NCBI GenBank assembly: GCA_044359815.1
Contig: JBIKLL010000040.1
Location: 1 to 22,859, forward strand
Source: Pseudobdellovibrionaceae bacterium
GTDB lineage: Bacteria; Bdellovibrionota; Bdellovibrionia; Bdellovibrionales; Bdellovibrionaceae
Direction: 5' to 3'
Length of the DNA stretch: 22,859 nucleotides
Shown here: piece by piece, positions 2,552 through 20,091 of the stretch
Position numbering within the stretch: position 1 is the first letter of the stretch
How the letters are laid out: every line of letters starts with the position of its first letter
Translations under genes and position numbers: made by a program
Notes under the pieces: model-generated
Databases searched by the model: none
The model's input: only the letters and a program-made list of their open reading frames with translations
Told to the model about the DNA's origin: nothing

Positions 2552-3256
2552 ATGAAATTAATCGCAACTTTACTGTCAGTGATTTTATTGTTTTCACAAA
2601 TGGGTTTTGCAGATGATGCTTTGCGAATCAAGGCACTGAAAGATCAAATTATAACCATGGCCAAGGATTTTGAAGGGCAGGGGGATGCTGATTTTTCAAA
2701 ACAAAAAGCCTTGGATGTTTTGGTTGAAGAATTAGTTCTTTTAGCACCGCAGAAACCTGTGAAGGACAGAATCAGCGTTATCGCTGGGGTTTGGCGACAA
2801 GTGTGGGGCAAATACGACTACCGCAATGAAGACCGAGGCATAGATCCTGAATTAGGTATTGAAGAAATTTATCAAGTCGTAAATGAAAAAGGTTATTACT
2901 ACAACGTATCCTATTTGTATAAAGACGGTGACAGAAACCAAAAACGAATTGGCTTGTTGCGAGGTAAGTTTAAATTAGACAAGCAAGATTCGAATTCTTT
3001 AAAAGTAAAGTTCACCGACTACCCCGGTGCCAGTAAAAAATCAGATAATGTTCCATTGTGGGCATTAGCTGAAATGGCAGAGAATAAAACACTTCCAAAC
3101 AGAATCACTATTGTGTCTTCTTGGATTGTGCGATGGTTTTTTGGTGGCGGAACTTTGCGTGAAGCCTACACTGACAAAGATTTGCGCATCGTTTACGGAG
3201 CCAGCGGCGGAGTCAAAGAAAACGAAACCATTTATGTGATGACAAGGGTTCAATAA
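2552..3256 (+). CDS. Secreted PAP/fibrillin-like (lipocalin-like fold) protein
   Basis: RBS GAGGGGG. Sec signal peptide (…MGFA-DD). The pattern LKDQII...LVEELVLLAP...IAGVWRQVW...IYQVV...GTLREAYTDKDLRI resembles fibrillin GxW and TYLDxDLRI motifs. Confidence 0.6.
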   Translation: MKLIATLLSVILLFSQMGFADDALRIKALKDQIITMAKDFEGQGDADFSKQKALDVLVEELVLLAPQKPVKDRISVIAGVWRQVWGKYDYRNEDRGIDPELGIEEIYQVVNEKGYYYNVSYLYKDGDRNQKRIGLLRGKFKLDKQDSNSLKVKFTDYPGASKKSDNVPLWALAEMAENKTLPNRITIVSSWIVRWFFGGGTLREAYTDKDLRIVYGASGGVKENETIYVMTRVQ

Positions 3257-3293
3257 CCCTTTAGGTTGGGCCTCAAAATTAAAGGAGGCCTCA

Positions 3294-3647
3294 ATGCCTT
3301 ATGAAATTTATAATTTTATTCACATCCTGGGTTTAATTTTGGTTGTATATAGTTTCGGTATCGCATTTTTAAGATCAACGGGACAGGATAAGCGCAAATG
3401 GCCCATGATGATTAATGGCATTGGGTTGGCTTTGATTTTATTAGGTGGGTTTGGCATGGCTGCTCGATTGGGCTACACCACAGGGTTTCCGACCTGGGTT
3501 TTATTTAAAATTGGTTTTTGGGTAGTTTTAGGTTTTATCCCTGTGATTTTACGCAAATTTAGCGCTCCAGCCTATGTTTCGGCACTGGCTCAGATCGGAT
3601 TAGTGCTGGTGGCCGCAGGTTTCGGGATTTTTAAACCAATGAGCTAA
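3294..3647 (+). CDS. Small four-TM membrane protein (SirB2-like)
   Basis: Strong RBS AAGGAGG. Four hydrophobic helices, N-terminal Y..IH and PxWxxxK motifs. Confidence 0.65.
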   Translation: MPYEIYNFIHILGLILVVYSFGIAFLRSTGQDKRKWPMMINGIGLALILLGGFGMAARLGYTTGFPTWVLFKIGFWVVLGFIPVILRKFSAPAYVSALAQIGLVLVAAGFGIFKPMS

Positions 3648-3691
3648 GCTCGGGCAAAGCTGATAATAGATATTTCAGCTATTAAAAAGTC

Positions 3692-3718
3692 CATAGCGCC
3701 CCATCACAAAAACCGATA
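3692..3718 (+). promoter_or_regulatory. Candidate sigma28 (FliA)-type promoter
   Basis: CATAG-N16-CCGATA, ending 10 nt before ATG 3729. Good -10 element, weak -35. Confidence 0.35.
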
Positions 3719-3728
3719 GATCAAAGCC

Positions 3729-4772
3729 ATGGCAAATTCTGTGGTTATATTTTTGATTCAAGTCATTTTTCTTGTGGGACCTTCGCAATCTGTCGCCATC
3801 AATGCACAGGCTCAATCGCAATCTAAAAATCAAACAATCTCGGAATCAGATCAGGAGCTAGAGTCCCTGACTGTCACTGAATTGCTTAAAAAAATTCAAG
3901 GTTCTGATCTTAAAAACGTCCAACGGTTGTTAAAAATTGTCGAAAAATCCGAATATTTTAAAAAGGCCCATGTTATTCAATTGATATTTTTAGTACACGC
4001 TCAATCAGATTATCAGACAGAATTGTTATTGATAGATTTTATCGCTAAAAAAATATCTGAACTGTATTACAACACCAAGGCTGACCAAAATGAACTTTTG
4101 ATTATCAAAAATTTGGTAAAAACCCTGAATGCCAGACATCCCTACCGACAAACTCTGTTTGATATTTTGCATTCTAAAAATTTATTAACCCCACAGGACA
4201 TTGAGCTGGTGGCTTTGTTTTTACCACCACTTAAGCATAAAAGCTCTCGGCAGAAATTGGATATATTGTACCCACTATTGAGCGCAGGATTTCAGCACGC
4301 AAAACCTGAAACTCAAGAACTGATTTTACAAAAAATCTCAGCCAGTAATTTGGCTTCATTTTCCAAATCCATATTGCTGTTTAATGTCGGGGACAGAAAT
4401 ATTTATCACATTAAAAATCTGATCAGGCTTTTTGCGGATGAACATTCTAAATATTTAAAGTCACTGGATCCGAAAAGTGATTTTGTCTATAAGCCCCATC
4501 CTTCAGTGAACACTGGGGATTACGATGAGGTATTAAGCGAAATTAATAAATTATTGTTTACGCAGACAGTGGCGGGCAGCCGTTTAAGGTCTTACGTGGC
4601 ACAAATCAGAAAGCATTTTAAACATGGCTTAACCAATGGCTCTGATTCAGAAGGCATCGATGATAAATACCGGCTGGAATTTATTAACCTGTTTGATAAT
4701 GGAAATTTTAGATTGTATTCGCCCAATGTTGAAAACAAGTGCGATTATGTCTTTGCCAAAAGATTTTTTTGA
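3729..4772 (+). CDS. Secreted hypothetical protein, predicted alpha-helical
   Basis: 347-aa ORF with a hydrophobic N-terminal signal and Leu-rich helical composition. Its only Cys lies in the C-terminal KCDYVF. Confidence 0.75.
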   Translation: MANSVVIFLIQVIFLVGPSQSVAINAQAQSQSKNQTISESDQELESLTVTELLKKIQGSDLKNVQRLLKIVEKSEYFKKAHVIQLIFLVHAQSDYQTELLLIDFIAKKISELYYNTKADQNELLIIKNLVKTLNARHPYRQTLFDILHSKNLLTPQDIELVALFLPPLKHKSSRQKLDILYPLLSAGFQHAKPETQELILQKISASNLASFSKSILLFNVGDRNIYHIKNLIRLFADEHSKYLKSLDPKSDFVYKPHPSVNTGDYDEVLSEINKLLFTQTVAGSRLRSYVAQIRKHFKHGLTNGSDSEGIDDKYRLEFINLFDNGNFRLYSPNVENKCDYVFAKRFF

Positions 4773-4811
4773 TCACTCAATACCTGCGACGCCCTTAGCT
4801 TAAGAGCTTAT

Positions 4812-4952
4812 TTATTGAAAATAGCTGTAGGTTAAAGACAGATTGAGTTCTGAATGACTGCAGTCGCCAGGTAATCCGAACCCAAAGTCATCGTTGTCAC
4901 CAGTCGTAATCAGTGTCACCGTATGCGGGGCCGCTACAGATTTGCCGGCGAG
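4812..4952 (-). pseudogene. C-terminal remnant of a protein gene (no start codon)
   Basis: The minus frame reads ...LAGKSVAAPHTVTLITTGDNDDFGFGLPGDCSHSELNLSLTYSYFQ-stop (TAA at 4814-4812), a protein-like beta-strand C-terminus. There is no ATG before the next upstream in-frame stop. Not in the ORF track. Confidence 0.5.
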
Positions 4953-5438
4953 ACGATAACAGCTTGGAATCCAATCACCAGTGGCGGAGCAATCACAACG
5001 ATGGCAAATTCTGGAGCTAATTTAATTGTGGGTGGAACCTTCACTTCTTTAGGTGGAGTTCCCAGAAATTATTTAGCAATGTATGACACCAATAATCCTA
5101 TACCCACTTTGATGCCATGGAATCCAAATCCCAATGGATTTGTCAGCGACGTTCGACTTGCAAATGGAAATTTATATATTTCTGGCAATTACAGCTCCAT
5201 CGGTGGGGCTCTCAGGCCAGGCTTGGCTCATCTGGAGCTTGCCACAGGTAATGCCACTTCATGGACACCTCCTGCAGTCGTTGCCGCCAGACCGCCAGCA
5301 GTCTCTAATTTTAATGGATCAATGTTTTACCATTATGGAAAACAGCTTTATATTTATGGCAGGCATTATGTAGGCGATGATGGATTCACACGCGACCTGA
5401 TTGGCATCAATACACAAACGGGTGGATTAAGGCCTTAG
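4923..5438 (+). pseudogene. C-terminal fragment of a beta-propeller repeat surface protein
   Basis: Repeating blades (WNP...NLIVGGTFTSLGGVPRNYLA; WNPNPNG...NLYISGNYSSIGGALRPGLA; WTP) begin mid-repeat at ~4953. There is no signal peptide or RBS, and the first ~10 codons are the antisense of the neighbouring fragment. Confidence 0.65.
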
Positions 5439-5483
5439 GGAATCTGCGTTAGTTTAACTCAAATAATTTTCCTTTTTCGTGTG

Positions 5484-6446
5484 TCATTTTATTTTGTCTG
5501 TAAAATCCTTTTGATCGCTAGGTCGCCCCCTTAATCGCGGGCCGCTATCAGAAAGCCATCTTTTGACTTCAGTTTTTAAAACTCGGCGATGTCCGCCTGG
5601 GGTGATCATGGATTTCAATTCGCCACGGTCAATAGCCCTTCTGATGGTGTCTTTGTGACATTTCATTCTTAAGGCGATTTCCTCGGGACTGTAGGATTCC
5701 TCAGCATCCCAGTCGGGTGGAAAGTGGGCAGGGGACGGGGCTGGGATAGGCAGCCCCTGTTGCAGCATTTTACCCCTTTGATCCTCGGCCTTTTTCCAAG
5801 CTTTCAATATCTGTTCGCCAATCATGGCAAAGTATTTTCTCTTTTGTGAATCCTTTAATCTTTTGATGGACGGCAAGCTGTCGGTTTCGACTGCAAAATC
5901 AGGAATATAAATTTTGAGTGATTCAAACTCAGACCTTAAAACCAAAGGATATTCCTGAATACTGGTCAACCTATCCGCCGTTGATGTTTTACCAGAACGA
6001 ACTTTGCGGATCAGTTTTTTAAGGGTCTTTTGTTTTTTTAACTCAAGCCGTTCAAGCGCCTTTTTCTGATTTAACTTATTCTTTTTACTCTTATTAAACC
6101 CTTTTTTGAGAATTCTTGATTTTGTTTTAAACGATTTCTTGTCTCTGCGACTGGTTTTAAACTTTGCTTTTCTGGCAATGTGTTTTCGGTTTAAATTCTT
6201 ACGTTTTTTAAGGTTTTTCCCTACTGTTTTTGATCTTTTTTTGCTGTTTTTAAGGGAGGATTTAGTCTTTTTCCTGAAGACGACGGGTTTTTTAAATCGA
6301 CTGTTTTTACCCTTATTATTTCGGCCGCCTTTTTTTGCTGTTTTACCCTTTTTTGGCTTTCCGGCAAACTTAGGTTTTTTGGAACCACTGGCCCTCTTGT
6401 TTTTCAAACCATTTTTCCGCTTCTTCAAACCTTTTTTAGCAGCCAT
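5484..6446 (-). CDS. Excisionase/BldC-type (HTH_17, MerR-like) DNA-binding protein with a long Lys/Arg-rich N-terminal tail and C-terminal AT-hook-like motif
   Basis: GGGGG RBS before ATG 6446 (MAAKKG). The first ~153 aa are ~45% K+R. HTH: YSPEEIALRMKCHKDTIRRAIDRGELKSMITPGGHRRVLKTEVKRWL (~5553-5693), followed by PRLRGRPS. Confidence 0.85.
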   Translation of the reverse strand: MAAKKGLKKRKNGLKNKRASGSKKPKFAGKPKKGKTAKKGGRNNKGKNSRFKKPVVFRKKTKSSLKNSKKRSKTVGKNLKKRKNLNRKHIARKAKFKTSRRDKKSFKTKSRILKKGFNKSKKNKLNQKKALERLELKKQKTLKKLIRKVRSGKTSTADRLTSIQEYPLVLRSEFESLKIYIPDFAVETDSLPSIKRLKDSQKRKYFAMIGEQILKAWKKAEDQRGKMLQQGLPIPAPSPAHFPPDWDAEESYSPEEIALRMKCHKDTIRRAIDRGELKSMITPGGHRRVLKTEVKRWLSDSGPRLRGRPSDQKDFTDKIK

Positions 6447-6556
6447 TTTTACCCCCAAAATTGAAATTCAAAACCCTTTATAACCCTAAAAAACGGGTCA
6501 AATCATTGATAAAGCCATACAACAAAACCAAAGAAAAAAATCTATCAGATAAAATA

Positions 6557-6592
6557 GTCGCAAATGTCGCATTAAAAATAAAGCTTTATTTT
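6557..6592. promoter_or_regulatory. Candidate protein-binding sites in the divergent promoter region: GTCGCA direct repeat and an 18-bp perfect palindrome
   Basis: GTCGCA at 6557-6562 and 6566-6571 (9-bp period). AAAATAAAGCTTTATTTT at 6575-6592. Confidence 0.45.
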
Positions 6593-6612
6593 GTTGCCTG
6601 AGCTATTATTTA

Positions 6613-6640
6613 ATGTATTATAAGATTAGTTATCGTACAT
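6613..6640. other. dif/Xer-like tyrosine-recombinase core site (11-6-11)
   Basis: ATGTATTATAA-GATTAG-TTATCGTACAT. The arms are inverted at 9/11 positions (12/15 when extended), with the inner ATAA-N6-TTAT geometry of Xer dif sites, 106 bp upstream of the recombinase ATG. Confidence 0.7.
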
Positions 6641-6746
6641 AAAAGATTTGTGGGTTTTTACTTTTCAATTTTCAGTCTGAAAACCCAGGGATTTTGATGG
6701 TTTTTACGAATTTTTAATGAGTGTTTTTTAAAGGCAGGGGGATTAT

Positions 6747-7706
6747 ATGAGTCAAAAGCGAGGTCTAGATTCCAAATCAACCACTGAAAACAATCACCCA
6801 TTGCAAATCCAATCAAAAACCCAAGGTTTTTTAACTGATTTAACCCACCTTTCAGACAAGGAGCTTAAGCTTTTGACTTCTTGGTTGTTTTCTAGACCCA
6901 GAAACACGCAAAAGTCCTACAAAACTGAAATCGCCAAGTTTTTGCAGATGTATCCTGGCCTGCAGCTAAAAAACGTTGAAACCTTTCACGTAGTCAAATT
7001 TTTAAACGATCTTAAAAAATCAGGACTTAAAGAAGTCTCTATCAATCACGCCAGGGATGCCCTGTCGTCGATGTTTAATTACTTTGTGAAAACTCATTTT
7101 ATAGTTTCAAACCCCGTAAGCCCCATTGAGCGAAATAAAATCCCTGATCAAACAGCTCACCGAATACAAACCATGGATGAAACCTTGCTGATGATCAAAA
7201 AAGAACCTGATGAAAGAAACAGAATCATTATCAGGACTATTTTTGAAACCGGAGTCAGACGGGAAGAACTGTGCAAGCTTTGTTTTAACAATATCTATAA
7301 ATACGGAAGAAACTATTTTCTGACGGTCACAGGCAAAGGTTCAAAAACCAGGACCATTATGATTTCTAAAAGTTTATTTTTAAGCCTGGAATCGCTGATT
7401 AAAAATCCTGACGGCACATTGGCTCCTCGAAAGACCGAGGTTTTTAGATCCTACAGATTTCCCTATAAGGCTCTGACGGGGACTGATATTTACCGCATTA
7501 TCATCAAAGCCAGCCTTCGCTGTGGCAAAAAACGATCTCCGCACGAGGGGCGCCATGGACACGCCACCTTGGCCCTTGAAAAGGGTGCAGACCTTCGTGA
7601 AATCCAGTTTACCTTGGGACATGAATCTATAACAACCACGACGAAATACACTCACGTCAGACCAACACAGTCGACGACAAGATTTATAAGATTTAAAAAA
7701 ATATGA
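6747..7706 (+). CDS. Tyrosine recombinase/integrase, XerC/XerD-like
   Basis: GGGGG RBS. SAM-like N-terminal domain (NTQKSY...SINHARDALSSMFNY). Complete catalytic set: R (TGVRREE), K (GKGSKTR), HxxR (SPHEGRH), LGH and Y (TTKYTH). Confidence 0.93.
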   Translation: MSQKRGLDSKSTTENNHPLQIQSKTQGFLTDLTHLSDKELKLLTSWLFSRPRNTQKSYKTEIAKFLQMYPGLQLKNVETFHVVKFLNDLKKSGLKEVSINHARDALSSMFNYFVKTHFIVSNPVSPIERNKIPDQTAHRIQTMDETLLMIKKEPDERNRIIIRTIFETGVRREELCKLCFNNIYKYGRNYFLTVTGKGSKTRTIMISKSLFLSLESLIKNPDGTLAPRKTEVFRSYRFPYKALTGTDIYRIIIKASLRCGKKRSPHEGRHGHATLALEKGADLREIQFTLGHESITTTTKYTHVRPTQSTTRFIRFKKI

Positions 7707-7710
7707 TTGC

Positions 7711-8394
7711 TTAGGGATAGCGGGGGTGACCCGTAAGATGTGCTTGTTCTAAACTGTTGTAAATGAGTTCTGAGTAATACTTGAGTTTTAAAGATGAAAC
7801 ATACTCAACATTTGAATCGTCTTTGATCGTCACCAAAAACAAATTGTCAGACTGATGTTGTAATTCGATTATTATGCTAAATCCAGTCACCCATTGACCA
7901 ACAGATTTTGGACCTAGCCTGATTTGATAAAGTGTCTGATTTTGTGTCTGTTCTGTGTAAATCAGATTACTGTTGGAACGCACATGGTTTTTTATAAGCT
8001 GTAGTTTTGCATTAAGTTGGGCTGATTTAATTATTCCCGAATCTATAAGTCCTTGTATGCCTGTGTCTGATTGAAAATTAAAGGCCATTAAATAACTGGG
8101 CACAGAGTTGTAATAAAAATTCAGATTAAACATATTGCTAAACTGCGAATCAACACCGCAATTTAGGTCAATCACGCTGGCCCTGATAACAAAGTTTCTG
8201 TACCTGGTCATAATGTTTGCAGATTGCTTCATGTACTCGTCAATAAAATAGGTGGCGGGTATTTCTTCGGAGCTGGCTTGATCTATCTGGGAGCTTTGTT
8301 GTGCCGGTCCTCGCTCATCGCCCAATATCGAATTACACCCTAAATTAAAAATCGATAAAAGTATGATTAAAAATATAAATATCATGTTCCTCAT
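7711..8394 (-). CDS. Hypothetical lipoprotein
   Basis: The likely start is ATG 8394 (AAGG RBS), giving MRNMIFIFLIILLSIFNLGC with lipobox NLGC. The track's longer start at 8550 lacks support. Confidence 0.7.
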   Translation of the reverse strand: MRNMIFIFLIILLSIFNLGCNSILGDERGPAQQSSQIDQASSEEIPATYFIDEYMKQSANIMTRYRNFVIRASVIDLNCGVDSQFSNMFNLNFYYNSVPSYLMAFNFQSDTGIQGLIDSGIIKSAQLNAKLQLIKNHVRSNSNLIYTEQTQNQTLYQIRLGPKSVGQWVTGFSIIIELQHQSDNLFLVTIKDDSNVEYVSSLKLKYYSELIYNSLEQAHLTGHPRYP

Positions 8395-8591
8395 AAATAC
8401 CTTTCTCGATTCAATACGCCTCAATTTAAGTATTTCATTTCTGGACAGGTGGGACAATATTAACCTGGCTAGTGACTCATACTGATCCGCTTTAAAGTTT
8501 AGCTGCAAAACAAGGGTGTTAATCTTTTGGACAGACTGGCATTTTCCCAATTAAAAAAATGCCCAAATCCCTGCCAAATCACGACAGCTAC

Positions 8592-8620
8592 TTGAAATCA
8601 ATCTGCCTGGAATCTATAAG
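8592..8620 (+). promoter_or_regulatory. Candidate sigma70 promoter giving a leaderless mRNA
   Basis: TTGAAA-17 bp-TATAAG, ending 6 nt before ATG 8627. No clear SD. Confidence 0.45.
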
Positions 8621-8626
8621 TCTGAG

Positions 8627-9655
8627 ATGTTCAAATTCAGTGTTTTTACAATAATGCTTTTAATCAGTGTTGTGGTTCAGCAGTCGCAGGCCAAGGGACT
8701 TTGTGAAAACGCTTTTCGATTGGCTGGATTTGAAGATGTTCTGACCAGAGCCCAGGCCAAGCTTCCTGCAAATCTTAAAAACTTGAAAACACTTGATAAC
8801 CTGACGGATGCTCAGATTGAAAGAGCTGTTCGCTTTGAACAACCTGTTGGTATTGAAGTTTCAAAACACTTTGGATTGTACCCTTTGGCGATTAAATTGA
8901 TTCAATCCAATTTGCACGTGCTGGACACTGTCAGGCGCATAGATTTTGATAACATTATTGATACCAGAATTTATAAAATAACCAATCATCCTCTGTATCC
9001 CAGATTTAGGTTACTAATAAAATATTCCAGATTTGGGGACGTCAAAGTTTTTGAAAAGGATTTTCGAAGCAACGGTTATCTGGCCTTTTTGCATAACTCG
9101 TACAGAGATCATCAAAAACATGAAGCTCTGAGAATGTTTTTTACCTACAGCCCTGAGTTTTCTTTCTTGGCATCCAGAAAACAGGCTCGGGTTAAGGTTT
9201 ACGAACAAACTGATTTTGTTTTGTCAACCTTACCTGAAACCCTTGAGCTTTCGCGGGTAATGACAAAAACAGAAGCTGATTTGTGGCAATTGGGAAGCTC
9301 GACAGAAATAAAAACCTATTACAATAATGGTGGGACCCATTTTGCGTTGAAAGAATATCTGTTCCCAAACAGAGAACCTTCGCTGTTATATTACATTCAA
9401 ATCCCAAAAGATGTGTTTTATGATCTAAGGGCTCGCGACCTTCTGGTTGTAAACACCTATCCTTCTGTAGTTGATGATTTGGTGTGGGGGATGGTTGCGC
9501 AGAATCAGACGTCCTTTGGTTTAGAAATCGAAATCGTTGTTTTAAAATCAGAAGGCCGCAAGATCCTGGAGCCTTATATGAAAAGCATGGTGCCGGGGCC
9601 AGCTTCCCCCACCGTCGAAGACCGAAAAAGAATGCTTAACCCTGATCTTTTTTAG
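8627..9655 (+). CDS. Secreted hypothetical protein
   Basis: 342-aa ORF with a Sec signal (…SQA-K). The mature N-terminus carries LCENAF, its only Cys. Confidence 0.78.
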   Translation: MFKFSVFTIMLLISVVVQQSQAKGLCENAFRLAGFEDVLTRAQAKLPANLKNLKTLDNLTDAQIERAVRFEQPVGIEVSKHFGLYPLAIKLIQSNLHVLDTVRRIDFDNIIDTRIYKITNHPLYPRFRLLIKYSRFGDVKVFEKDFRSNGYLAFLHNSYRDHQKHEALRMFFTYSPEFSFLASRKQARVKVYEQTDFVLSTLPETLELSRVMTKTEADLWQLGSSTEIKTYYNNGGTHFALKEYLFPNREPSLLYYIQIPKDVFYDLRARDLLVVNTYPSVVDDLVWGMVAQNQTSFGLEIEIVVLKSEGRKILEPYMKSMVPGPASPTVEDRKRMLNPDLF

Positions 9656-9678
9656 TTTTTCAAAGCAAAACTAAAAAA
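9648..9678. terminator. A/T-rich hairpin overlapping the stop codon of 8627..9655 (possible terminator)
   Basis: TTTTTTAGTTTT (9648-9659) / AAAACTAAAAAA (9667-9678). Confidence 0.3.
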
Positions 9679-9682
9679 AGCT

Positions 9683-9967
9683 CCCATACTGATCTTTTAA
9701 ATATTTTAAAAGTATCTATATTCGAAAAAAGAGTTTCATTAGTACCACAAATTCCAACGTAAATTTTATTTTTTAATGACTTGTGCAGCGAGCGCGCTCT
9801 GCGTATCTAAGTGTTGCGGCATCGACAGATGAAGCAACACGGGAGACGAAGTGCGGCCGTTAGCGAAAGTCATTAAAGAGTAAAATTTATGTTGGAATTT
9901 GTGGTACTAATTCTATTTGCAGAAAGGAAAATAGTTTCTTTTAAAATATTTAAAGGATCAGTATGGG
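9683..9967 (+). repeat. Structured palindromic element, copy 1: conserved core 9784-9866 inside nested long inverted repeats
   Basis: Outer IR 9683-9712/9938-9967 (29/30). Inner IR 9739-9782/9867-9910 (41/44). All 4 mismatches are G-T/U pairs on the + strand. Core TGCAGCGAGCG...GCGGCCGTTAGCGA is shared with 14987-15094. Confidence 0.85.
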
Positions 9968-11904
9968 CATTCGTACTGAAAGCGCGCGACGGCGGCAGCA
10001 GGAGCTGAAGCAAAGGTCAGGATATTGCCCGAGACTGTGAATGCAGGCAGCGATGGTCCGCTGACCAATGTAGCAGTGACATCGGGGGACCCATTGTTGT
10101 CCTTATCCACAGGTGTGCACTGCAGTTGGATTTGCTTAACTGAGTTTTTGATCTGATGGCCGATGTCATCCAAGATTGTTGAATAATCATTGCTTTTAAT
10201 CTGTCCATCAGTGGCGCCAGTCAGTGTTTGCAACGACTGCAAAGCCCCAAGGATGCAAGGGACATTGTAACTGCAGACATTGTCAGCGGCTGGATCTTTG
10301 ATTGTATGGAAAAACATTTTTTTATTGATCCAGTTTTTGTTGATCAAACCTTGCAGGTAACTGCCCCTGCTTCTGATAGTGGTTCCGCCTTCGGCCTCAT
10401 CAGTGATTGAAATAATATGCAAACTGGCGTTGGCTCTGACAAAGGCTTTATTGTGTTGATTGATTGAATCACTCAGCAACGCCCTTTCCAGCATCCGCGC
10501 TGTGGATTTGATGGACTGCTGGGCCCAGTGACCCTTTTCACCCAACATCAGTGATTGAGCCAGGTTTGTGTTTAAATTTAAAGTGTCCATTGAATACCAG
10601 TACTTTGTGCTGTCTTGATGATTTGCCAACAGTAAGCCGTCTTGAACCTTTTGTTTAAATAATAAATCCTTGTTCGCAGGTTCAGGGCTGTTTGTGCCAT
10701 CATAGTTCATATCCGAAACACAGGTGTTGGCGTAAATATTTTGATTTTGGCCGTTACACAAACTGCCAGTCGTTGTGAATCCAATTCGGTAATCTATACC
10801 TGTAAGATGTGTGGTCAAATTGCCTATGGCTAAGCCCAGGGCCTGATGTTCGGAACTCATCGATGAAGTGTTAGCCACCACAAATAAAATTTCTGTCTGA
10901 TTCAAGGGTTGTTCTTGGATGATTTTTTTACCCTCATTGACCACTGAAAAATTAAAATGCCTTTCAGTTTGATTAGACAGTGTATCAGTCATCCGCACTT
11001 TGAAAGTGTGCGACCCCACAGACAATCCAGAATAAATTTTGGTTTCAGGATTGGCGCAGGGTTGATAGGGTGATCCATCCATTGTGCATTCAACCGATGA
11101 CAGCACCACTGAATTTCCCACGGCGTGAAAGGCAAAAACCACATCCTGCAGATTTCCCACGGCGGGTTCGGGACTGGCCGAAAACAAAACCTCTGGTCCA
11201 GATGAAATTGGCACCAAGGCATTTTGAATCCACGAAATCACCAGGGGTGGGGATTTATTACCAGCATTATCAAAAGCTTCTATCACCAAGGTTTTATTGC
11301 CATTTGTAATTGCGGTCAGATTTAATGGCGAACTGCATTCGGACCTGGCCTGTCCTGTAAAAACACATTCGTATTTTAAAATTCCTGATCCTGCATCGGC
11401 ACCTGAAAACTCCACTGTGGCCGTGCTGCCAGCGATTGTTCCGCTGGGGCCAGTTACCAGACTCAGAGTCGGCTTAATATTGTCGTGCAAATAAGTCACC
11501 GATTCACATCCAGATTCTGAATGTGAGTTTTTAAATTTTACGTAGACCGTGTTGGATTGATTCAGGTTTAAAATATTCCAGGACTTTTGAAAGCTAAAGT
11601 CTTCCCAGGCACCACCTGTTGAACAATCTGAAGTATTTGTGACATAGATTTGATTGGCGTGATTGGCAGTCAGATCCAGCAGAACGCTGGTTTTATTGGT
11701 AAACGAAGCTGCGGTCATTAAACCAGTGGGTGATTGAGATTCTGTAAAGGTTTGAACACTGGCTAAGGTCGTTGAAGTAGTGCTTGAAGAGGTTGATGCA
11801 GCCTCTAGCTGCTGGGGCTTTTCGCAATTGTTAAAGGCCAGCATCAGGATAATTCCGCATAAGGACAGAGCAAAATATCTGAAGACCCCTTTTTTCAGTG
11901 CCAT
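9958..11904 (-). CDS. Secreted/lipoprotein surface protein with Ig-like domains and a vWA-like domain
   Basis: Signal ending AFNNC, Ser/Thr-rich linker, Ig-like repeats (VYVKFKN, DNIKPTL, AFDNAGN, GLSVGSHTFKV), vWA-like ILFVVANTSSM...DYRIGFTTT...LHIISITDEAE, and a C-terminal LQCTP...YEC domain. Confidence 0.8.
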   Translation of the reverse strand: MALKKGVFRYFALSLCGIILMLAFNNCEKPQQLEAASTSSSTTSTTLASVQTFTESQSPTGLMTAASFTNKTSVLLDLTANHANQIYVTNTSDCSTGGAWEDFSFQKSWNILNLNQSNTVYVKFKNSHSESGCESVTYLHDNIKPTLSLVTGPSGTIAGSTATVEFSGADAGSGILKYECVFTGQARSECSSPLNLTAITNGNKTLVIEAFDNAGNKSPPLVISWIQNALVPISSGPEVLFSASPEPAVGNLQDVVFAFHAVGNSVVLSSVECTMDGSPYQPCANPETKIYSGLSVGSHTFKVRMTDTLSNQTERHFNFSVVNEGKKIIQEQPLNQTEILFVVANTSSMSSEHQALGLAIGNLTTHLTGIDYRIGFTTTGSLCNGQNQNIYANTCVSDMNYDGTNSPEPANKDLLFKQKVQDGLLLANHQDSTKYWYSMDTLNLNTNLAQSLMLGEKGHWAQQSIKSTARMLERALLSDSINQHNKAFVRANASLHIISITDEAEGGTTIRSRGSYLQGLINKNWINKKMFFHTIKDPAADNVCSYNVPCILGALQSLQTLTGATDGQIKSNDYSTILDDIGHQIKNSVKQIQLQCTPVDKDNNGSPDVTATLVSGPSLPAFTVSGNILTFASAPAAAVARFQYECPY

Positions 11905-17539: not shown

Positions 17540-18220
17540 ATGGAAAAAACAAAATTCAACGATAAAACTACAGATAAATTAAAATTTCAGTTAATCAACA
17601 ACCCTGATTTTGAAAAAACAATTTCAAACACTGACACGATTCATGGCGAATTATTCGAAATCGAAAAACAAATCATCGAACAAAAAATTCCTATTGATAT
17701 TGGTGTTGCCAATGATGAACACCTAAAACAACGCGAAAACGTCAGCTTTGTTGAATTCAGACGGGGATCCAGTTCACGAAAACCTGGTTACATTCTGGCT
17801 GCTTGGTCGTTTTTTAGCGCTTTATGTGACACTTTAATTAATTTCGGTATGGCTTGTTTATTTATGGTGGCCTCAAGCTTAGTCATGCAAAGTCAATCTG
17901 ATCAGGTCTTTGAGTTTTTTCAAGATTCATTCCCCATCATTTTTATTTTGTTGTTCATGGCATTTCAAAGCCTGTACATGCTGGTGACCCGTGCCTTTAT
18001 CGGCGCAAGCTTGGGTGAATGGGCCAGCGGCATCCGCCTGGGCAGTGTCAAAGACCGGCTGGACAGTTTTTACGTGGCCCGAGTGTTTGGCAGATCTTTA
18101 ATGGTGTTTTGTACAGGAATAATAACTTTACCAGTACTGTCTTTGCTGATTGGCAAAGATGCCGCTGGATTTCTATCGGGGATCTATTTGGTAAAAATAG
18201 ATTATAAAAATCATGTCTAA
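17540..18220 (+). CDS. RDD family membrane protein
   Basis: SALCDTLI helix, [18 protein letters not shown] and RVFGR, the typical RDD pattern. Start ATG 17540 is preferred because TAGACT (-10-like) lies 7 nt upstream. The track start is 17477. Confidence 0.75.
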
Positions 18221-18251
18221 ATCTGTTTTTGCATACAAGGAAGTGTTTTCA

Positions 18252-19178
18252 ATGAATTCTAAAAAATTGGTTTTTATAGCGATGATGGTTTTAGCCACGG
18301 CTTGCACAAAATCCGCAGATTCCACACCGGCGGCTGTGGATCCCAATATTTCAAAACTGGCCGACAGGCTTTTTTGGATTTCTGGCGAAAATGTTCCTGA
18401 CAGCACTATCGGAAAGCCCGAAGATTTTTATTTTCACACAGCCACAGCTGATATTTATAAAAAAGACGAAAACGACAATTGGAATTTGCTTTTAAACATC
18501 AAAGGACCTGCAGGCATTGGCCCCCAGGGACCACAGGGATTAATTGGTCCGCAAGGTCCTCAGGGTGAAATGGGTTTAACAGGAGCTACGGGACCTCAAG
18601 GTTTGACTGGTGCTACTGGCTCCTCTGGCCCGATGGGACCGCAGGGATTAATTGGACCCCAAGGCACACAAGGCCCGCAAGGATTAACGGGTCCGCAGGG
18701 GATTCAGGGCGTGGCGGGCAGTGACGGTGCCGATGGCTTAAATGCTAATTCGGTTGTGATGATTCATCAACAAACTCAAACAGCTGCCAGATACACTGCC
18801 AGTAAAAATTTAAATCTGTCAGTTCCTTTGACTGTGGATGCATTGATTGGCAGCGGCGCTCAAGGCGTTACCATCATGATTTATTCCACCGGGATTACCT
18901 GCAGCTACAGGGGAACAGCGTCGATTTCAAATCCCAGCACTGGCAGCCGGGACTACGAAATCGGAAAAGCTTATAAATTGCAAAAATGCGTTTCAAACGC
19001 AGGACTGGTTGATGATGATTTTAGAAATCAAACCGCAGCATTTACTGGCAGGCCGGCCATCGATGTCAGCGCGGGTATGGCTTTAACTGCTGGGCAATTT
19101 GTTGAATTAAAAATCCTGTCTGGCGGAGCCAGGGTTAATCCGATCAGAGCTCAATCGCATTCTGTCGTTTTGAATTAG
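18252..19178 (+). CDS. Collagen-like lipoprotein
   Basis: AAGGAAG RBS, then [18 protein letters not shown] lipobox, a WISG..P...G...DFYF.T.T..IYKK...W...NIKG module, 25 Gly-X-Y triplets and a C-terminal globular domain. Confidence 0.85.
18519..18743 (+). repeat. Collagen triple-helix coding repeat, (Gly-X-Y)25
   Basis: Uninterrupted GPQ GPQ GLI ... GAD GLN with diverged synonymous codons. Confidence 0.9.
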
Positions 19179-19377: not shown

Positions 19378-20091
19378 ATGAACAAACTCATCATACGCAT
19401 TCGGTACATAATATTACTTATCGGAATTATTCCGTTTCAATCTTTTGCCCAGTTTGAAACCTCACGTTGTGTGGATTTTTTGGCCCGAATCGCCCAGATT
19501 GATTATCGCAGGCAGAATTTCACAGATATGTGCTACCTCAGCACTAATCCCAATACTTATTCTACGATGAAATACCGCAGTTTTTCCTTTACCCAAGATG
19601 GCTCGATGATTGTTTTTAATTCTTTTGGCCAGGGACCATCTGAAACCATGACTGGGGCCAGACACTATTTCTTTTTCCCCAGAAACCAATACCCCAGCAT
19701 TAAACAAAACAAAGACACCGTCAGTCTGTTTACTGGAGCTAAGGGTGCAGAATTCACCTTTGATCAAAAAAAGAGCCGAATTATCGAGTTAAAAGGGGGG
19801 ATTTTTACTGAGGATCCTGAAATTGGCCCCCATAATAATGGGGGATTTGATATTACAAAAACCCCGACCTTGATGCTGGATTGCGGATATCAGACGGGAC
19901 GGGATCCTTGTGCCGATCCTAAACGCAAATCTGTTTTTAAAGATACAGATTCAGCCACTTGCGAAGTTATTAATAAGGAAGTTTTTAATTATTCCGCTTC
20001 CGGAAATCCCACGCTTAAACACAGTAACGAAGAGCTGACAAAATTTTTGGCTTCTCGTTGCCCCGGTTTAAACCAAAAATCGATTTTGTAG
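19378..20091 (+). CDS. Secreted hypothetical protein with multiple Cys
   Basis: Signal peptide (…SFA-Q), 237 aa, six Cys. Confidence 0.78.
   Translation: MNKLIIRIRYIILLIGIIPFQSFAQFETSRCVDFLARIAQIDYRRQNFTDMCYLSTNPNTYSTMKYRSFSFTQDGSMIVFNSFGQGPSETMTGARHYFFFPRNQYPSIKQNKDTVSLFTGAKGAEFTFDQKKSRIIELKGGIFTEDPEIGPHNNGGFDITKTPTLMLDCGYQTGRDPCADPKRKSVFKDTDSATCEVINKEVFNYSASGNPTLKHSNEELTKFLASRCPGLNQKSIL

Follow-up and report, generated by a model that had tools for sequence, protein, structure and literature searches.

The 22,859-nucleotide contig JBIKLL010000040.1 of a Pseudobdellovibrionaceae bacterium (GenBank assembly GCA_044359815.1; "the window" below means this whole stretch of DNA) carries a compact recombination cassette, which consists of a Xer-like tyrosine recombinase, a divergently oriented gene for a helper protein with a BldC/Xis-type winged helix-turn-helix (wHTH) domain and, in the spacer between the two genes, a core site of 11-6-11 geometry accompanied on one side by short direct repeats (Table 1). 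The gene pair and both DNA elements are conserved in relatives, copies of the cassette are found on plasmids, and the cassette is physically linked to dif, the canonical XerCD site, which in the window lies 12.8 kb away at a local turn of the GC skew. We tentatively favour, with somewhat less than even confidence, the interpretation that this is a self-contained resolution cassette of plasmid or other mobile origin that is now kept in the dif zone. An earlier note on this DNA, made from the sequence alone, had already proposed a self-contained recombination unit, and the conservation of the pair and its site, together with a Xer-like and catalytically complete recombinase, bears this out. The context absent from that note is that the window is the replication terminus.

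Table 1. Features of the recombination cassette, and the dif site, in the window
Feature	Position	Strand	Remarks
Helper gene	5484-6458	(-)	324 aa if started at TTG
Helper: BldC/Xis-type winged HTH	~5550-5693	(-)	
Helper: small alpha/beta N-domain	~5724-5963	(-)	
Helper: lysine-rich tail	5964-6446	(-)	
Direct repeats	6557-6571		GTCGCA-N3-GTCGCA; repeated every 9 bp, 41 bp away from the core; the wHTH helper presumably binds here
11-6-11 core	6613-6640		ATGTATTATAA GATTAG TTATCGTACAT; arms 9/11 complementary; presumed recombinase binding/crossover site
Further spacer repeats/palindromes	6647-6661/6693-6707; 6575-6592; 6651-6658/6680-6687		Outside the conserved blocks
Recombinase gene	6747-7706	(+)	319 aa; Xer-like "simple" tyrosine recombinase; SAM-like core-binding and catalytic domain
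Canonical XerCD dif	19401-19428	(-)	AATTCCGATAAGTAATATTATGTACCGA; 21/28 match to B. bacteriovorus HD100 dif

The core site and the repeats

Analysis of the open reading frames (ORFs) gives a spacer of 288 bp (6459-6746), close to the 300 bp or so that the earlier note had seen between the divergent genes, and the core lies 107 bp upstream of the recombinase gene. The 11-6-11 site reported there is confirmed by comparison: MAFFT aligns the core onto a conserved 28-bp palindrome of 19 relatives, and the mean frequency of the majority base is 0.87 in the core and 0.88 in the repeats of 9-bp period, whereas the sequence that separates the two and the sequence that follows reach 0.62 and 0.56. The genome (an assembly of 2.95 Mb, 91% complete) contains 106 sites that match ATAA-N6-TTAT, only five of which attain the 9/11 symmetry of the core; on its own this rarity is suggestive though post hoc, and comparative conservation is the stronger argument for the core.

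The GTCGCA pair of the window aligns with the TCTGCCAAATCTTCCA-type repeats of the same 19 relatives, and its position is constant relative to the core, not to the start codon; repeats of 9-bp period also occur in the relatives G176, G137, G074 and G100a and on plasmid pBdHM1. The direct repeat and the palindrome that the earlier note had pointed to are indeed present in the spacer, but they fall outside the conserved blocks, and the repeat that is conserved is the GTCGCA pair. Other cassette types possess different cores of the same build, e.g. GGTTAACATAA GTATAG TTTTGTTAACC and AGGTTACATAA GTGTAG TTGTGTAACCT, and 11-6-11 cores of equivalent build are found on plasmid pBdHM1, too. The site is thus real and a part of the unit, since it and the repeats coincide with conserved islands in 19 relatives and since other cassette types contain equally built cores and repeats.

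In the 91%-complete assembly no second copy of the 28-bp core was found at up to 6 mismatches, while its inner 18-mer gave, at up to 3 mismatches, 3 matches compared with 1-19 in shuffled sequences, i.e. not above the level of the shuffles; the claim that there is no att duplication, made earlier for the window, therefore holds for the assembly. The core is identical to the window's own dif at 17 of 28 positions in direct orientation. Its candidacy as the chromosomal dif itself was rejected, since the canonical dif lies elsewhere in the window (Table 1).

The recombinase

The recombinase matches the Pfam family PF00589 with 81.4 bits, as well as PF13495 and PF02899. It stays far below the equivalog cut-offs of the NCBIfam models for XerC (TIGR02224, 133.6 bits versus 335.15) and XerD (TIGR02225, 131 versus 329.6), and also below the cut-offs of the models for the archaeal XerA (124.8 versus 220), XerS (67.3 versus 267) and the integron integrase (TIGR02249, 80.2 versus 265; attC arrays were not searched for). 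Judged by these scores, the enzyme is Xer-like and neither XerC nor XerD. Its catalytic residues R171, K200, H266, R269, H292 and Y301 are all present, in accord with the earlier note, and this RKHRHY set does not vary among the homologues aligned (18 of 18). Its Pfam domains comprise the SAM-like core-binding and the catalytic domain only; an arm-binding domain is not among them, a trait of simple resolvases and Xer-type enzymes. The prediction of a complex between the recombinase and the helper scored 0.00, which is below the mark and informative neither way.

The cassette enzyme is one of two tyrosine recombinases in its own genome and is 30% identical to the other, a canonical Xer at C96:31232-32134. 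The complete genome of the relative G176 contains three, namely two canonical, better-scoring Xers and the cassette enzyme; an orthologue of the second of these Xers was not found in the 91%-complete assembly studied here, where its neighbours map to contig ends. As a side observation, the canonical Xer gene has, at a distance of about 3 kb, a gene for a separate Ala/Lys/Pro-rich histone-H1-like protein both in the own genome (C96:28081; L001, 143 aa) and in G176 (G176:C1:2584650-2585183, 177 aa).

In a maximum-likelihood tree of 41 recombinases, a long branch parts the cassette enzymes from the canonical Xers. Recombinases linked to dif appear in at least two clades, one of them nested among mobile copies: this clade (G136, G178, G151 and G147) belongs, together with the copies of G100, G015 and G074, to an open group of 10 rows whose support is weak. 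The enzyme of the window forms a long, deep branch whose placement is unsafe.

The helper protein

The ATG at 6446, with a Shine-Dalgarno-like GGGGG run 4 nt upstream, is a likelier start of the helper than the TTG of the longest reading. The protein matches HTH_17 (8.1e-10, residues 256-303) and passes the cut-off of the "excise" model TIGR01764 (43.6 bits versus 28.8). A structure model of residues 161-324 (predicted local distance difference test score of 85) was compared with known folds, the domain matches being taken from the ranked Foldseek list and VIA-align. Its C-terminal domain superposes on BldC with a Z-score of 8.2 and a root mean square deviation of 1.4 over 52 residues, and on the Xis folds of mycobacteriophage Pukovnik Xis (Z 7.6), RdfS (Z 6.4) and Tn916 Xis (Z 4.7); further matches include GIsul2 Xis and MerR-type DNA-binding domains. 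The N-domain (residues ~166-245) shows weak similarity to LptE (Z 7.0), TTHA0281 (Z 5.9) and HicB (Z 4.7-4.9) and has no Pfam match at E<=0.1, and the whole helper model has no Foldseek match in the PDB at E<=0.001. The excisionase-type nature of the neighbour gene, as proposed earlier, is supported by both the TIGR01764 score and the wHTH fold; of its designation as a directionality factor the excisionase-type domain stands, but this is a label at the level of the domain, and no second att site was found in the assembly.

The helper family is small, with 113 representatives at E<=1e-10 in a library of 1.84 billion representatives, mostly of 140-190 aa. One of its members, P0034 (283 aa), contains the whole helper (N-domain and wHTH) tandemly duplicated in a single polypeptide.

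Residues 1-165 of the helper are 33% lysine and 10% arginine, with a net charge of +67. This composition agrees with the histone-H1-like tail of the earlier note, but the label is compositional only, because no linker-histone Pfam family matches the helper at E<=0.1. Comparably lysine-rich ORFs are rare in the own genome (8 of 2,944 long ORFs). Among all relatives seen, the tail is confined to the own lineage, i.e. P0004 (~160 aa), P0005 (~120 aa) and P0021 (~45 aa). The first of these is a 99%-identical strain variant in which the frame of the tail is intact despite substitutions, while the more distant P0005 and P0021 carry K/R-rich tails unrelated to that of the window; the other relatives are tail-less and ~140-190 aa long. 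The lysine-rich tail is thus a lineage-specific add-on rather than a feature of the family, contrary to its earlier inclusion in the definition of the system.

The match of the helper to the excisionase domain family and to Xis folds could also mean that the two genes are the Int/Xis pair of a still-active integrative element, with the intergenic site as its att and its borders elsewhere in or beyond the window. A tRNA-Val gene at 2391-2466, the sole Rfam match in the whole window, lies 4.2 kb away, and the GC skew is locally reversed at ~3.5-8.5 kb of the window; both speak for such an element. We nevertheless consider this scenario very improbable: neither the core nor its inner 18 nt is repeated in the genome, the recombinase has no detectable arm-binding domain, the genes flank an intact site and do not stand at the ends of an element, and metagenome contigs show no joints. 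Moreover, comparison of the 20 other ORFs of the window with Pfam revealed no phage, conjugation, replication or transposase family, as the earlier note had maintained, and the window is syntenic terminus backbone.

Linkage to dif and the replication terminus

The dif site of the window was recognized by comparison with that of B. bacteriovorus HD100, as given by Carnoy and Roten (PMC2731167). The genes of the window (BamB, a TPR protein, MscS, LipB and others) are syntenic with positions 1.769-1.813 Mb of the complete, 3.39-Mb genome of G176, a genome with dnaA at base 37, a skew switch at 1.75-1.78 Mb and this dif motif at 1,773,604. A 17-nt dif motif is present in 134 of 182 genomes of the family, in a single copy in 133 of the 134, while the reversed control gave 3 hits in total.

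In 26 of 51 helper-bearing genomes of the family the cassette and dif are on one contig, and in all 26 they are separated by 0.05-17 kb, although kin in this count are not independent and many contigs are short and able to report short distances only. On large contigs or in closed genomes the distance is 12.1 kb (G176), 16.6 kb (G136), 12.0 kb (G154), 16.3 kb (G103), 5.5 kb (G171), 7.4 kb (G178) and 0.7 kb (G137). None of the 26 genomes has the cassette on the same contig as dif but far from it. In 22 of the 51 the two are on separate contigs, mostly in fragmented assemblies, the clear exception being G074, and in the remaining 3 no exact dif motif was found. The linkage spans three genera.

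Simple conserved synteny was considered as the cause of the linkage and is weakened by the variable placement of the cassette. In the backbone order TPR-BamB-cl2-[dif]-cl10-cl6-...-MscS the cassette occupies at least four different positions on both sides of dif: past the MscS block (the window and G103), between cl28 and dif (G171), next to MsrA (G176, G136 and G178) and on the BamB side of dif (G137 and G150). The complete genome G135, which lacks the cassette, has the order cl28-cl13-[dif]-cl2. In 23 of the 26 genomes the recombinase gene is the dif-proximal one and is transcribed toward dif, and of the 26 cassettes 16 are found on the side of the XerC arm and 10 on that of the XerD arm. 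In G150 the stop codon of the recombinase is 16 bp from dif, whereas in G153 the cassette is mirrored on the other side, 44 bp away, with the orientation of dif unchanged.

Three side observations concern the vicinity of dif in the window. The ORF at 19378-20091 includes the site within its 5' end when read at full length, so that its true start is probably downstream; the segment with this ORF and dif is apparently inverted locally with respect to relatives; and directly beside dif there is an ORF (18213-19178) with collagen triple-helix repeats (PF01391, 1.2e-13).

Distribution and mobile relatives

The helper profile detects the helper in 64 of 384 genomes of the order and, within the bacterial family, in 50 of 181 other genomes, including 8 of 9 in genus g7, 33 of 52 in g3 and 2 of 44 in g9. 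On metagenome contigs it finds three weak loci that match in the HTH only, and a search of genome contigs with five closer rows yielded one relative (a Bdellovibrionales metagenome-assembled genome) and one HTH-only match. A homologous recombinase stands beside the helper, in divergent orientation, in 27 of 30 fetched loci (the own one included), and two of the three exceptions are contig ends. The search for homologues proposed in the earlier note has accordingly revealed a conserved divergent pair, with core and repeats conserved in 19 relatives. The divergence of the recombinase is near that of the flanking housekeeping genes (~30% versus 34-46% for the neighbours). Two variations of the layout may be mentioned: one cassette type (G176:C1:1785313-1785621; L061-L063, G136, G178) has a gene for a small MarR/HVO_A0114-like wHTH protein between the core and the recombinase, and in G100, G013 and pBdHM1 toxin-antitoxin or other genes lie between helper and recombinase.

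The mobile origin of the cassette is clear. Plasmid pBdHM1 of Bdellovibrio sp. HM001 (AP029175.1) carries the recombinase, the helper, a core with arms of 10/11 and TTGGAAC-N2-TTGGAAC repeats, and the G074 copy is separated by 1.2 kb from a gene for a ParA ATPase on a 209-kb second contig, with dif on the main contig. G100 contains four copies, with genes for a RecD2-like helicase and AbiE-type toxin-antitoxin nearby, and in G015 an IS91-family transposase follows the recombinase homologue. Homologues of the recombinase at ~30-37% identity are encoded in 62 plasmid records, mostly cyanobacterial.

This distribution invites the main alternative, which fits almost as well and which we regard as possible but doubtful, namely that the cassette travels with, or is left over from, mobile DNA (a plasmid, an element akin to the integrative mobile elements exploiting Xer recombination (IMEXs) or a dif-targeting insertion) that inserts at or beside dif, and that it serves this element, e.g. 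in the resolution or excision of a circular form, so that the linkage would reflect insertion specificity and not a benefit to the host. In addition to the plasmid copies, the neighbours of the G100 and G015 homologues, the patchy occurrence of the cassette and the interleaving of dif-linked and mobile recombinase clades in the tree, it would account for the variable genes between the cassette and dif and for the mirrored cassettes of the close relatives G150 and G153 at 16-44 bp on either side of dif; insertion sequences and IMEXs that target dif have already been described. On the other hand, no second dif-like or core-like flank was seen at the distal end of the cassette and the dif motif occurs once per genome. 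This distal end overlaps the neighbouring genes by 4-14 bp in G150 and G153, and in the window and G103 backbone genes, not cargo, lie between the cassette and dif. Furthermore, both genes and both DNA elements are intact and conserved at a divergence similar to that of the flanking housekeeping genes, and the core is intact between the two genes, therefore insertion did not proceed through the core. The 12.8-kb interval between core and dif was also considered as an IMEX and rejected, as it contains backbone genes, e.g. those of MscS and of the NAD(P)HX repair enzyme.

Proposed function and its alternatives

A single core, a simple recombinase, helper sites on one side, plasmid- and par-linked copies and residence in the dif zone lead us to the resolution-type cassette as the preferred reading. 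Its anatomy, conservation, plasmid copies and dif linkage are observed; its binding partners, the outcome of the reaction and any benefit to the host are what we infer in the following model. Each of the two 11-bp arms of the single core (6613-6640) would be occupied by recombinase monomers, with strand exchange taking place across the 6 bp between the arms. At a distance of 41 bp from the core, the BldC/Xis-type helper would line up head-to-tail on the pair of 9-bp-spaced repeats and bend the DNA. BldC and recombination directionality factors (RDFs) are reported to form head-to-tail multimers on direct repeats (PMC5859096, PMC7498355), a mode of binding with which the conserved repeats at 32-41 bp from the core agree. 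As an architectural accessory factor the helper might confine the reaction to two directly repeated full sites, i.e. to resolution, and it could also autoregulate the divergent promoters, while the lysine-rich tail probably adds non-specific affinity for DNA. With one core per chromosome, two copies would be present only when the chromosome is dimeric, or when a plasmid with the cassette is multimeric, and the resolution of dimers or multimers, auxiliary to XerCD/dif, is therefore the likeliest product. Such an auxiliary role in dimer resolution would explain the retention of the cassette inside the dif zone. Of the options left by the earlier note, a resolvase or a chromosome-maintenance unit fits better than an active minimal mobile element does, although a mobile origin is clear.

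It is tempting to go further and to regard the cassette as a XerCD-independent second system of chromosome resolution, recruited from plasmids at least twice into the dif zone of Bdellovibrio-like predators, which relies on one enzyme and one site, uses a BldC/Xis-type helper as a topological filter and here is equipped with a 160-aa polylysine DNA-binding tail. We hold this bolder version to be rather unlikely.

Several observations weigh against a resolution function kept for the host. The cassette is dispensable, being missing from 19 of 52 g3 genomes (including the complete G135) and from 42 of 44 g9 genomes, and the relatives possess XerC-like and XerD-like genes and dif. Kinship among the genomes and the shortness of many contigs reduce the weight of the linkage count, and the mirrored polarity (23 of 26 genomes; 16-44 bp in G150 and G153, the two junctions inspected) could equally be the mark of targeted insertion or of selection. 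Products of recombination were not observed, and the contigs of four lake-water metagenome runs contain no joints over positions 3000-10500; one contig of run X5 is clipped after 6640, with an overhang that resembles diverged homologous sequence. Finally, a -10-like hexamer overlaps the left arm of the core, though it is a weak match to the consensus (10 found versus 5.9 expected), and in a divergent promoter the palindrome and the repeats could be mere operators.

The last point may be extended to a scenario in which no recombination takes place at the locus and the recombinase acts elsewhere, possibly at the canonical dif, as a partner of or a substitute for a Xer missing from the assembly. 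The own genome, with its two tyrosine recombinases and no orthologue of the second G176 Xer, would fit this idea, and so would the recombinase gene that abuts dif in G150 and G153 in the manner of xerS next to difSL. It nonetheless seems distinctly unlikely to us, as 91% of the genome is assembled and the genes that would adjoin the missing Xer are at contig ends, while the complete G176 has both canonical Xers in addition to the cassette enzyme. Besides, dif is invariant with or without the cassette, and the core has the exact 11-6-11 geometry of a recombinase site, with a sequence that changes along with the recombinase clade.

The metagenome contigs yielded two side observations. In run X3, one contig matches the window from 6524 rightwards and has at least 255 unlike bases leftwards, with a dip in depth at this point; either the assembly is chimeric here, or the contig may stem from a strain in which another sequence adjoins the core on the left. 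At ~9735-9915, between the ORFs 8627-9655 and 9958-11904, there is a long palindromic element resembling a miniature inverted-repeat transposable element, at which many contigs break and the summed contig depth reaches up to ~5x that of the flanks in the four runs, which suggests a multi-copy repeat.

On the current view, chromosome dimers are resolved by a single Xer/dif system per replicon, and foreign DNA at dif relies on the Xer proteins of the host. Here, a complete extra cassette, which brings its own enzyme, site and accessory protein, is linked to dif in three genera and is also found on a plasmid. If it resolves dimers, it would show how plasmid stability functions become functions of chromosome maintenance, a matter of interest in predators whose single filament has to distribute many copies of the chromosome. 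With a true second system, two parallel ways of dimer resolution would for the first time be known side by side at one terminus, and the Cre/loxP-at-dif experiments would have a counterpart in nature, whereas a dif-seeking element would represent a new mode of terminus targeting. The trio of recombinase, site and helper is compact and directly testable in E. coli, and nature provides a series of helpers with and without the polylysine tail.

Comparison with known systems

Full-text literature searches (supplements aside) found no description of the helper family, nor of any third Xer-like recombinase that is linked to dif and accompanied by a helper of the RDF type, in keeping with the earlier opinion that the system is apparently undescribed. 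Its parts can be compared with several known systems. Foreign DNA at or beside dif is described for IMEXs and dif-targeting insertion sequences (CTX/TLC phages, GGI, LME-1 and the IS1202 family), and the cassette is likewise found at or right beside dif. However, IMEXs employ the Xer proteins of the host and have a dif-like site at either end, whereas the cassette has its own recombinase and core, there is one dif motif per genome, and no dif-like sequence was seen at the distal cassette junctions of G150 and G153.

With the Int/Xis pairs (Pukovnik Xis, RdfS and Tn916 Xis) the cassette shares the wHTH fold of the helper and the direct repeats beside the recombinase core, direct repeats being reported as the binding sites of RDFs (PMC7498355). 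In contrast to these pairs, the site of the cassette is intact between the genes, and no arm-binding domain, attL/attR pair or element genes were detected.

Plasmid multimers are resolved by tyrosine recombinases encoded beside their own sites, as in Cre/loxP of P1 and ResD/rfsF of F. XerCD acts at cer and psi in resolution with accessory proteins. The cassette resembles such multimer-resolution systems in the combination of a recombinase with a short inverted-repeat core, in the presumed accessory sites on one side of the core, an arrangement that would impose selectivity for resolution, and in its occurrence on plasmids and near a gene for a ParA partition ATPase. Unlike in XerCD at cer/psi, the accessory factor is encoded by the cassette and is of the BldC/Xis type with an extra N-domain, in place of the host PepA, ArgR or ArcA, and unlike in the plasmid systems the chromosomal copies are tied to dif.

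XerS/difSL of streptococci and lactococci and XerH/difH of Campylobacter and Helicobacter are described as single recombinases linked to their own dif-like site at the terminus (PMC2731167, PMC5357621). The cassette follows the same plan, as its recombinase adjoins its own inverted-repeat site and the module is at the terminus. However, those systems are the only ones of their cells, whereas the cassette shares the window with a canonical dif and, in relatives, the genome with two canonical Xers; it also differs from them in having a dedicated wHTH helper and helper-type repeats, and in being dispensable and plasmid-borne as well as chromosomal.

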